6,514 nt of DNA from a virus (taxonomy: Duplodnaviria > Heunggongvirae > Uroviricota > Caudoviricetes), in IMG/VR virus record IMGVR_UViG_2563366903_000006; one strand, 5' to 3'. Below, one piece after another: positions 3,001-6,000 of the stretch. The position numbers are program-made. Position 1 is the stretch's first letter. Each line of letters opens with the position of its first letter.

Positions 3001-6000
3001 TGGATGAGGCCAGGGCAGCGAAACAGAAGGCAGAAGAGGTTGCGACAACCCGCCCGTCGGGAGAAAGCATACCTGGACCGAAAGGTGACAGGGGCGAGCA
3101 AGGACCGGCAGGTCCCACAGGTCCGAAAGGTGAGCGCGGTGAACCCGGACCTCAGGGGCCTGCAGGACAGAAAGGTGAGCAGGGCCTCCGTGGGCTGCAG
3201 GGGGCGACAGGACCTGCGGGAGCAGTGGGGCCCGCAGGCCCACAGGGACCGGCTGGTGCAGCTGGTCCCAAAGGTGATGCAGGCCCGGCAGGGCCACGAG
3301 GTGAAAGGGGACCCGCGGGGGCACAGGGTGTTCCGGGGCCGGTTGGTCCGGCAGGTCCTGCGGGTAAAACGGGGCCACAGGGCCCTGCCGGAGGGCGAGG
3401 ACCGATGGGACTGCCCGGGTTGGATGGTAAAACCGGACCACAGGGACCACAAGGACCACAGGGACCACAAGGGCCAACCGGAAGGCTGGTACCCGGGGAA
3501 ATTTACAGCATCGGAACATACATTATTGCCGCACTAGGCCCGTATATAACCGACATCGGCAGAACCTATCAGCCAGGAGAAACTGTATCGGGTTCACGCC
3601 TTAAGCGATGCGCCCTAATCAAAGACGAAAACGGAAACTATATGAAAGCTAACACCGATGGCATTGACGGCATACTATCCTCAGTTCCGGGCTCATGGAT
3701 GGTGTGTAATGAAATTACGTCGACAAATGATAATGAAAGCATCGGGCTGTTCCAGCGCGCATACTGACAGACAGGAGATGAACATGAATGTGGAAAAAAT
3801 AAGCAATCCGCAATGGGCAGATAAAGATCACACTGCTGTCAATTGCATGGTGAAGTTTGAGCACATTGAGCAGGCGGTTCCTTTCACTGCAACAGCCAGC
3901 GATACCGAAGCATACGGGCGGGATATTTATGCCGCTTGTCTGAGAGGAGAGGCCGGTGAAATTGCAGAATATGTACAGCCATCCATCAGCCCGGAAAAAG
4001 CCAGAGAACTCAAAACCGCCGGGATCAACGCCTGGCGTAATGCGATGGAAGCGGCGAACTACACGTTTGAGCACAATGGGCGTAAATGGGACTACGGGAA
4101 GTCAACGCAGACGCGTCTTGAGCCGTCGGTGGCGGCAGCGAAAGCGGGGAAACTGCCGGAGGCGTTTTTCTGGACGGATGCGGACAATAATGACGTACCG
4201 ATGGACGCTGAAACACTGATTGCTCTGAGTGCTGCTGCAGAGCAGGCGATGTTTACCAAAGGTCTGGAAATTCATGTCAGACAGCGCACGATGAAAAAAG
4301 AGATTGAAGCGCTGGGTGATGCGGAAGCTATACTGGCGTATAAGGTCGGCATGGCTGACAGGTGAAAAAAAGAGGGGCGCTCCAGCCCCTTGCTACAAAG
4401 CTATGGCTAAATAAAGAATACTCAGGTCGAGGAAATAATCTGGCAATGATAATTAAAGGAGATGCAACGGCCTCCTTCACCCCTGTCAAAGATAAAAAAC
4501 TGGGGAGTGCGTGCTCCCCGAGAGCATGATACTTGTGGTTGATAGTTATTTTTATCCGGCGACAAAGATATTGAGATGAGGGCGCGGATGCAATACAGAA
4601 TTTTCGTATTGCATGGTAACTGCTGATTCCTGAAACTGAAAGTCGTCATGAAACTGTAAGCGAAAAAACGGGGGGGACGGCACGCTCCCCAAGGTCATAC
4701 ATGAGATAGTGGTGTTTTTATAGTCGAAAGAATAATTGCATAAAAAGAGTGTAAATTAAACATTCAGGGGATACAGAATTTTCGTAGGCTGAGGGATTGC
4801 TGAAAATAATTTAGTGCGTCCTTCAATGGTCATTCAATGGTCATCAGATTGTGCTGATGTAAACAGTTAAGCACAATTTGATTATTTGACTTTCTTCTTT
4901 TTGTGACTAACTTCACAATTAAAGATGTAACCGTATACAAATTGTTGATGAATAAAGAGACAGCATAAGTGGCAGGCCAGTCGTAATGCGGATATCCCTT
5001 CGCGGACGTGATATCACCGACGTTATAGTAAGGAAATTCCGAAAAACTTCATATTAAAATTCGGAATTTCTTCAGGAGTAAGCTCATGAGAGCGGCGAGA
5101 CATCAGATTTTCTTTATATATCCGATGTTGAACTGTTTTATTTGTATACAGATAATTTTATAGGGTATACCACATGAGCAAGAAATTTACAAAGACTATT
5201 CTTTCATCTGCTGTTGCCGGTCTGTTGTTGGTGAGTGGTGGGGTTGTTGCGGCAACTCCTGATGACGTAAAAATTGGGGACGAGTACATCGTAAAATTTT
5301 ACAAGGATGGGGAAGGTGCCAAGATAGTAGACGCACAAGGAAAAGAGGTTTTAGGTGCTATTAATACAACAACAGGAAGCATCATGGCCTTTAATAAAGA
5401 GGAGGTTGCTAATTTTTTAGCAAAACACGGAGAAAGTAAAACGCAGGATTATTTTAATTCTATTGCGTATCCTGTCTACTTACCTGAGTTAAAGCTGGAA
5501 AATATTAAAAAGTTAAAGGGTACAGACGTTGAAAAAATAAAAAAAGTTAAGGATGATGTATCCAAGATTATTACCTCCAAAACCGCGGCCGATTATAACC
5601 AGGCTGTAAAAAATGGTATGAGTTCTGAAGCTGCACTGACTGTAGCTAAAGATGGTGGTGCAGTCTTAAAAGAATTCAACCGAATTGATTCGGATATCGA
5701 CCAACTGAATAAAGAGACAACTTTTGCGCTTGATGCCGATGGCAATATCACGCTGGATGAAAATCAGGGAAGCGGTGAGCGTTATTCTGTAAAACAAACA
5801 GTCGCAGATATTAAGGCTGACACTACTGTCTACCAGAATAAAGATGGCAGCTATACACTTGACCAGAGCGCACCGGGCAACGTTCGTGTGAATGATGCTG
5901 TTGTCAGCCTCGACAACAGAACCCGCAGTAACACTCAGGCTATCCAGAATCACTCCCGCCAGCTGCAGGAGCATAACGCACGCCTGAACAGCCAGCAGCG

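Follow-up and report, generated by a model that had tools for sequence, protein, structure and literature searches.

A perfect inverted repeat before Eib-type prophage adhesin genes: a candidate 5'-end stem-loop ahead of a conserved, covarying leader

Introduction

What is the role of a perfect inverted repeat placed shortly before the start codon of a prophage adhesin gene? The question is raised by a 6,514-nucleotide (nt) stretch of viral DNA (Caudoviricetes; IMG/VR record IMGVR_UViG_2563366903_000006), called here the window, in which a repeat with 11-bp arms at positions 5033-5070 sits between a tail-fibre assembly gene and the gene of an Eib-type trimeric autotransporter adhesin, all on the same strand. 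In Shiga-toxin-producing Escherichia coli, chain-like adherence is driven by Eib proteins, which also bind immunoglobulins. Their expression is temperature-dependent (PMC4352079) and, more broadly, strongly condition-dependent, being raised in static culture, in stationary phase and at 37 C (PMC4352079, PMC5450701); the mechanism of this condition-dependence is not addressed in these two papers or in PMC13534694.

A first-pass annotation of the window offered two roles for the repeat: an operator for a dimeric regulator if it acts as DNA, or, if it acts as RNA, a stem-loop controlling translation of a mini-ORF (a short open reading frame) and, through it, of the adhesin. By examining the repeat in the window, in complete E. 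coli genomes and among related leaders, and by analogy with known messenger RNAs (mRNAs), we hypothesize, with a probability of roughly 0.4, that it folds, close to the 5' end of the eib mRNA, into a stem-loop with a stabilising or insulating effect on the leader. Of greater interest is what directly follows the repeat, a conserved and covarying eib leader; this context is more useful than the repeat itself, which adds little because it had already been annotated.

Results

The repeat and its record

The elements in question are as follows.

5033-5043, + strand: left arm (HP1), GAAATTCCGAA, exact reverse complement of the right arm
5044-5059, + strand: A/T-rich loop of 16 nt, AAACTTCATATTAAAA, holding CATATT (5050-5055) and TAAAAT (5055-5060)
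5060-5070, + strand: right arm, TTCGGAATTTC; as RNA, pairing reaches 5072
5174-6247, + strand: Eib-type trimeric autotransporter adhesin gene, 357 amino acids (YadA_anchor, PF03895, E 4.4e-16)

The inverted repeat is real and improbable as a product of chance. Its arms are 100% complementary over 11 bp with 16 nt between them, exactly as the first-pass annotation had described them (coordinates and AT-rich spacer included), and the AGGAG that it placed just 3' of the repeat lies precisely at 5074-5078. When perfect inverted repeats of at least 11 bp with loops of 3-40 nt were counted, dinucleotide shuffling of the 808-nt intergenic region (4366-5173) gave one in 6 of 1000 cases (0.6%), which bears out the earlier judgement that chance is an unlikely origin within some 800 bp; for the whole 6.5-kb window the figure was 13 of 300 shuffles (4%), the real window having a single such repeat, at 5033-5070. 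As RNA the stem would grow to 13 pairs through G5032-U5071 and A5031-U5072, with a predicted energy of -13.2 kcal/mol for 5031-5072 (-10.9 for the 38-mer) and z-scores of -3.3 to -3.6 against dinucleotide shuffles; with an RNA beginning at 5035 the predicted hairpin still reaches -7.2 kcal/mol.

The repeat is not new, having been on public record since 2000, that is, for about 25 years. The GenBank record of Sandt and Hill for prophage P-EibA of E. coli ECOR-9 (AF151091.1) marks as "stem_loop" the positions 3777-3814, which read GAAATTCCGAAAAACTTCATATTAAAATTCGGAATTTC and are the same 38 nt as window 5033-5070, and 103 nt separate stem-loop and ATG both in the window and before eibA. The closest named relative is eibA. 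The adhesin leader of the window is homologous to the eibA leader, the intergenic region matches eib-bearing prophages, and near-identical adhesin loci are labelled "YadA-like family protein" in RefSeq. The depositors of eibA, eibC and eibD each marked a stem_loop at the equivalent site, which speaks for a structure there. The Eib literature searched, the original Sandt and Hill papers excepted, contains no analysis of a function of the repeat, a promoter, a transcription start or the stem-loop.

The first-pass annotation had suggested looking for the same palindrome before adhesin genes elsewhere, and it does recur: 27 of 5426 complete E. coli genomes contain the 48 nt around the repeat, at 70 places in all. 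Both the genomes and the number of places match those of the whole leader of the type described below as A, and the repeat always precedes a YadA-type (Eib-type, YadA-anchor) adhesin gene in a prophage tail-fibre region. A dispersed palindromic repeat, of the repetitive extragenic palindrome kind or like a miniature inverted-repeat transposable element, is excluded, as the sites are type-A eib leaders only and not unrelated contexts.

A leader family of six types

Twenty-four distinct leaders, gathered through conserved boxes together with the protein, form six types (A-F) of about 70% identity. All 24 have the same order of elements over 147-160 nt; in the window these are the following.

5024-5029, + strand: TAnnnT hexamer (TATAGT in the window); T1, A2 and T6 invariant in 24 of 24 leaders, inner bases variable
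5035 and 5038-5040, + strand: invariant A..TCC inside the A-rich segment (left arm), being A12, T15, C16 and C17 of alignment A3
5075-5077, + strand: invariant GGA
5102-5116, + strand: family-conserved box ATCAGATTTTCTTTA
5141-5150: family-conserved palindromic box TTTGTATACA, preceding the Shine-Dalgarno (SD) sequence and ATG
5162-5176, + strand: adhesin SD AGGG (5162-5165) and start codon (5174-5176), the 3' strand of a predicted helix with the ribosome-binding site (anti-RBS helix)

An A/T-rich middle follows the A..TCC segment in the family order, and the distance from hexamer to ATG is kept at 147-160 nt across types. The conserved module starts sharply at 5024, with no cross-type conservation farther upstream. 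Positions T26, A28, T31 and T32 of alignment A3, in the loop, are conserved family-wide, and the right arm is far less conserved in sequence than the left. The repeat would be the first element of a promoter-leader module of about 150 nt before every Eib-type prophage adhesin gene. The eib leader was not found in the species-representative E. coli genome of the contig collection scanned with a two-box pattern, and the sole match in that scan, an Aquificota metagenome-assembled genome (JAADEV010000058.1), is a chance match with no resemblance beyond the boxes.

The repeat might also be read as a transcription terminator or attenuator, keeping read-through from the upstream tail-fibre (late) operon out of the adhesin gene. 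The order of tail-fibre assembly gene, repeat and adhesin gene on one strand would suit it, and the depositors' "stem_loop" key was used for the terminator after eibA as well. The hairpin itself lacks what an intrinsic terminator has (a G+C-rich stem, a loop of 3-8 nt and a U-tract): 4 of its 11 pairs are G-C, the loop has 16 nt and the tail is UUCAGGAG. It was not flagged in a terminator scan, and it lies downstream of a conserved -10-like element. Such a role is highly improbable.

Pairing across the family

Conservation of the hairpin across the family is loose: a dyad at this site is recurrent yet dispensable. In type A the predicted hairpin is stable and independent in all leader folds (-13.8 kcal/mol, z -3.3) and persists in folds of the whole leader, which as a unit has a z-score of -3.6. 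Projected on the alignment, the type-A stem has 75% of its cells paired, compared with 67% in column shuffles (0 of 500 reach 75%) and 55-63% after a one-column slide of the partner, and double-sided changes occur at three pairs; in a structure-fitted alignment the repeat stem is 72% paired, compared with 57-58% when slid. Significantly stable hairpins, with arms that all differ, are predicted in four lineages (A, z -3.3; D/L025, -3.1; E/L034-35, -3.4; E/L048, -2.3), and A and E/L034-35 retain a stem of 12-13 bp in the same register by way of three compensatory changes (G-C to A-U, A-U to U-A and U-A to A-U). The + strand folds somewhat better than the - strand through G-U pairs (-13.6 versus -8.2 kcal/mol in L035). 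Since arms can covary in this manner without the need of a co-evolving protein, a nucleic-acid structure is favoured over an operator.

Among type-A copies from E. coli, IMG/VR and gut metagenomes, the 40-nt segment occurs as seven haplotypes whose differences are confined to the loop (5047, 5048, 5050) or to the innermost pair (5043). Position 5050 is the commonest type-A polymorphism, with C in 18 and T in 15 among 35 distinct contexts; the change from C to T turns CATATT into TATATT, a 5/6 match to the -10 consensus.

Where transcription may start

Two arrangements of the promoter can be read from the leader. In the one that we put at slightly better than even odds, TAnnnT at 5024-5029 would be the -10 element, the RNA would start at about 5034-5037 and the repeat would lie at its very 5' end. 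The TATAGT block fits the -10 invariants perfectly, and no conserved or good -35 element was found for it; the missing -35 would fit an activator-dependent or sigma-S-type promoter, in line with expression in stationary phase and static culture. This arrangement accounts for a hexamer whose invariant bases are exactly those of a -10 element, for the unvarying UCC and for the covariation of the arms. In the other, the GTAA block would be a poor -35 element with the -10 in the loop, the RNA would start at about 5061-5068 and the left arm would be untranscribed. Every type has a 5/6 -10-like hexamer (TAAAAT, TATATT or TAAATT) 16-18 bp past the GTAA block, and this second arrangement explains both the conservation of the loop and the abrupt onset of conservation at 5024. 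The 168 bp of upstream DNA in an eibG complementation construct (PMC13534694) suit both arrangements. The only promoter proposed by consensus scan, TTGAAC-17-GATAAT at 5128-5156, was rejected as too near the ATG to account for the conserved leader, and none of the sigma-E, sigma-28, sigma-54, Fur, IHF, LexA or CRP-like motifs sought by visual inspection was convincing.

The second arrangement bears on an explanation at the DNA level, in which the dyad would bracket the core promoter (GTAAG block at 5026-5031 as a weak -35, A/T-rich loop as -10, arms flanking spacer and start) and would serve as a regulator site (for example for IbrAB, H-NS or a phage protein) or set the promoter geometry. It would account for the conserved loop positions; the module begins where a -35 would sit, the -10-like hexamers recur at their constant distance in each type, and the commonest type-A polymorphism toggles just such a hexamer between CATATT and TATATT. 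The strong condition-dependence of Eib expression, moreover, implies regulators. Yet the supposed -35 lacks its defining TT (TAGTAA, ATGTAA, CAGTAC, GGGTAA), and no regulator gene is linked in the window. The half-site centres (5038 and 5065) are 27 bp or about 2.6 turns apart, a spacing not near a multiple of 10.5 bp, which sets them on different faces of the helix and is unusual for a dimer. Nor are the half-sites conserved among homologous promoters as operators of a shared regulator would be: the left arm is partly kept, the right arm is not, and changes fall on both sides, the arms covarying. The operator for a dimeric regulator proposed at first pass is a poor fit on these grounds, and we consider a DNA-level role of the kind described unlikely.

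Weighing the stem-loop

In the 5'-end stem-loop hypothesis, transcription driven by TAnnnT at 5024-5029 would start just before the left arm or a few bases into it, and the repeat would fold in the mRNA into an A/U-rich stem-loop of 9-13 bp at or beside the 5' end. The hairpin would shield the transcript from 5'-end-dependent decay (entry of RppH and RNase E), in the manner of the ompA and papA 5' stem-loops. It would also lock away the conserved UCC of its left arm and so leave the AGGAG linker, which is single-stranded, and the anti-RBS domain to fold independently. Of the two options of the first-pass annotation, the RNA stem-loop is the better backed and agrees with the annotation of eibA; the part that routed control through the mini-ORF is not general.

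A number of points weigh against this hypothesis. The stabilising or insulating role is drawn by analogy, and we infer the promoter and the transcription start, and hence the presence of the left arm in the RNA, from the leader sequence. A simple position-weight scan for sigma-70 does not separate two upstream candidates and leaves the loop -10 as an option, and no transcription start is reported for eib genes in the accessible Eib literature. RNAalifold, run on the 24-sequence MAFFT alignment, gave no consensus hairpin at the repeat, finding only a TGTATACA mini-hairpin farther downstream, and with type A removed the in-register pairing is 67.5%, compared with 66.7% at a slide of +1. The stem is broken without compensation in sister leaders (D/L031, z +1.2; EibC, EibD and EibG, about -0.3), z-scores are at least 0 in E/L050 and type F, and types B and C are weak as well. 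Within type A, where about 10% of flanking sites vary, the 22 arm bases hold one variable site for about 2.2 expected, a difference that is not significant; and because type-A copies are about 99% identical, their intact arms represent essentially one evolutionary event.

The same observations feed a neutral explanation, that an ancestral quasi-palindrome, A-rich on one side and T-rich on the other, in A/T-rich DNA was perfected in type A by replication template switching or drift and then spread with the type-A eib cassette in its recent expansion. The perfect repeat occurs in one of six leader types, the dyads of the others being imperfect or absent; conservation among near-identical type-A copies carries no statistical weight; the sisters D/L031 and E/EibC lose the stem uncompensated; and a chance probability of 4% for the whole window is modest. 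Template switching at quasi-palindromes also yields changes in both arms that resemble compensation. Neutrality has more difficulty with four lineages that independently have hairpins of z at most -2.3 at the same position with different arms, with family-wide in-register pairing (75%) above all 500 shuffles and all slid controls, with family-invariant bases inside the left arm, and with the place of the repeat between two clearly selected elements, the TAnnnT hexamer and the anti-RBS domain. We regard it as doubtful.

A structured RNA downstream of the repeat

Modelling indicates that the leader 3' of the repeat is a conserved, covarying multi-helix RNA, and window 5075-5185 looks like an undescribed cis-regulatory 5' untranslated region (UTR). 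Its predicted parts are as follows.

5075-5085, + strand: 5' strand of the anti-RBS helix (helix 2 of model R1), overlapping AGGAG 5074-5078; 85.8% paired
5101-5127, + strand: second hairpin (HP2), CATCAGA / TCCGATG around the conserved loop TTTTCTTTA, in all types (z -1.3 to -6.2)
5141-5152: near-invariant palindromic box TTTGTATACAGA with core TGTATACA at 5143-5150, helix 5 of the model

Types A, C, D and E have minimum-free-energy folds of one common architecture, in which a long-range helix joins the segment after the repeat to the adhesin SD or start region and encloses a helix capped by HP2 as well as the mini-hairpin of the palindromic core. The strand complementary to the adhesin ribosome-binding region has AGGAG at its 5' edge. 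The anti-RBS strands differ between types: GCUCAUG (5082-5088) and CAUGAGC (5173-5179, covering the eib start codon) in type A, CCUCAUG and CAUGAGG in type C, UACCCUUAUGAAA and UUUCAUAGGGUA in type D, and AUAUCCUG and CAGGAUAU in type E; the duplex has a z-score against shuffles of -2.0 in A and of -3.6 to -4.4 in C, D and E. In the model a specific strand complementary to the adhesin ribosome-binding site exists, and no excess occlusion is claimed: the pairing probability of positions -14 to +2 did not differ from that in shuffled leaders in most types.

Because sequence alignment hides covarying helices, a covariance model was built from type E alone. It recovers all the other types, the window among them (5035-5185, 37 bits, E 3e-5). 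In the resulting structural alignment, which is fitted to the structure so that its pairing figures lean that way, 85% of cells are paired compared with 32-45% in slid controls, still a large margin. Compensatory changes occur at 21 of 39 pairs overall, with helix 3 contributing 8 of its 9 pairs and HP2 7 of its 8; HP2, with its near-invariant loop UUUUCUUUA, has 88% of cells paired, and a type-A variant (L033) repairs its A-C mismatch. This covariation of the leader as RNA implies that at least the part downstream of the repeat is transcribed on the + strand. The box at 5141-5152 is a perfect 12-mer palindrome, TTTGTATACAAA, in types B, C and D, and five of the six types keep TTTGTATACA(G/A)A without change, at a distance of 22-33 nt from the adhesin ATG downstream; as the pairs of the box never vary, a role as RNA and a role as DNA (such as a site for the ParB-like activator IbrB) are not distinguishable from them. 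A covariance scan of the whole window with Rfam 15, on both strands, gave 0 matches at E up to 1.

The repeat also has a complement within the adhesin gene: the end of its right arm and tail, AAUUUCUU (5065-5072), is perfectly complementary to adhesin codons 3-5, AAGAAAUU (5180-5187), and in type E the model pairs the equivalent of 5065-5072 with the start-codon region (helix 1 of R1, 70% paired). An alternative pairing of 5065-5072 with 5180-5187 is possible, though the segments are A/U-rich and of low complexity.

In a wider view, translation of prophage Eib-type adhesins would be governed by a so far undescribed family of cis-regulatory RNAs, with the repeat as its variable first module. 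The parts of this putative three-way switch would be the invariant UCC at 5038-5040, the anti-RBS strand of GGA...CCU type at 5075-5085, and the adhesin SD with its start codon. In some types the UCC would pair with the downstream GGA as an anti-anti-SD, or the right-arm region with the start-codon region, and the perfect hairpin of type A would lock the switch in one state. If this were so, hairpin strength would set the expression level of each eib allele or its dependence on conditions (static culture, 37 C). We think such a switch distinctly unlikely.

The mini-ORF

5086-5163, + strand: mini-ORF of 25 codons, MRAARHQIFFIYPMLNCFICIQIIL, with SD AGGAG at 5074-5078

The mini-ORF ends 10 nt before the ATG at 5174, and its stop codon TAG (5161-5163) overlaps the eib SD. 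Types A, C, D and F have an upstream ATG at one alignment column, 7-8 nt after the invariant GGA, opening frames that differ between them and run for 17-28 codons; type B has no upstream ORF (uORF), and type E has none or one of 3 codons. Control through the mini-ORF, as the first-pass annotation had it, thus does not hold up as a general mechanism, and the conservation across homologous leaders that marks leader-peptide or uORF control is lacking. Changes within the type-A mini-ORF (5 nonsynonymous, 4 synonymous and 2 indels) give no clear sign of purifying selection, and the peptide has no Pfam match. If the mini-ORF matters, it would probably act through translation across the anti-RBS strand and not through its peptide. 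Two type-A variants, among them L012 from IMG/VR, carry an extra T before the mini-ORF stop (window 5160), which lengthens the frame to a TGA overlapping the adhesin ATG (ATGA).

Other features of the window

6281-6297, + strand: terminator-like hairpin and T-run after the adhesin gene

With this hairpin, whose equivalent after eibA is marked as a stem_loop in the P-EibA record, the adhesin gene carries its own predicted terminator. Upstream, a 693-amino-acid tail-fibre ORF (1686-3767) has two long collagen-like Gly-X-Y repeat blocks, of the kind that the title of PMC3368898 names for prophage tail fibres of pathogenic E. coli, and is followed by a DUF4376 tail-fibre assembly gene (3784-4365). 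The alignment with P-EibA spans just 80% of the query, as two pieces. Between the assembly gene and the leader, a unit of about 150-170 nt is present as a diverged duplicate (4480-4625 and 4650-4800) that shares the exact 16-nt repeat ATACAGAATTTTCGTA (4593, 4771). On the minus strand, each unit carries a hairpin rich in G+C with a T-run after it (4502-4519, 4673-4690), and a third such hairpin and T-run lies at 4373-4390. These minus-strand hairpins (4373-4690) could be terminators of small transcripts; those of the duplicated units (4480-4800) had no match in Rfam. Farther on come a tandem 11-mer (GTCCTTCAATG / GTCATTCAATG, 4818-4839), then a 13-nt inverted repeat of 92% (ATCAGATTGTGCT / AGCACAATTTGAT, 4843-4855 / 4870-4882), and a promoter-like site on the minus strand (4909-4881).

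Discussion

The analysis yields a concrete map of the eib control region, consisting of a -10-like hexamer, a predicted hairpin at the 5' end, the anti-RBS helix, HP2 and the palindromic box that does not vary. The map is common to six diverged leader types and absent from Rfam, and it names the bases to mutate.

Comparison with known systems

Among annotated relatives, the P-EibA stem_loop is identical to the element of the window and the surrounding leaders are about 99% identical; the protein downstream in the window is a different member of the Eib family, 41% identical to EibA overall. The P-EibA record states no function for the stem_loop. The stem_loop of P-EibC and P-EibD (AF151674.1 and AF151675.1, 844-872) holds the homologous leader position, about 100 nt before the ATG, and is likewise an A/T-rich dyad, but its arms differ from those of the window (TAAATTTA.AAAA), its loop has 4 nt and its predicted stability as RNA is far lower (z about -0.3, like shuffles).

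With operators of the lacO1 type the repeat shares a dyad directly downstream of a -10-like hexamer; in those operators, however, half-sites lie about 10-11 or 21 bp apart and not 27 bp, and, unlike in them, the arms here covary and no cognate repressor is known. The eib leaders resemble anti-SD, uORF-coupling and RNA thermometer leaders in having a strand complementary to the adhesin SD or start region, with an upstream ATG inside that strand in four types, but the repeat neither holds nor pairs with either SD, and the uORF is not universal. An RNA thermometer (ROSE or fourU) at the repeat was rejected, the stem ending at 5070-5072 with AGGAG (5074-5078) outside it.

The closest analogy is with the 5' stabiliser stem-loops of ompA (hp1) and papA, described in sources listed in PMC3997798 (Emory, Bouvet and Belasco 1992; Arnold et al. 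1998; Bricker and Belasco 1999). The window hairpin has no sequence homology to them, its loop of 16 nt is unusually large, and its 5' end is a predicted one; hairpins of the ompA and papA type are defined by having at most a few unpaired nucleotides ahead of them. Like these mRNAs, the eib mRNA is predicted to carry a stable stem-loop in its 5' UTR (-13.2 kcal/mol, z about -3.3). As in ompA and papA, the mRNA would have a long leader and code for an outer-membrane protein or adhesin that is made in slow growth; the stem-loop would stand at or near the 5' end, here a predicted one, and would be independent of the ribosome-binding site.

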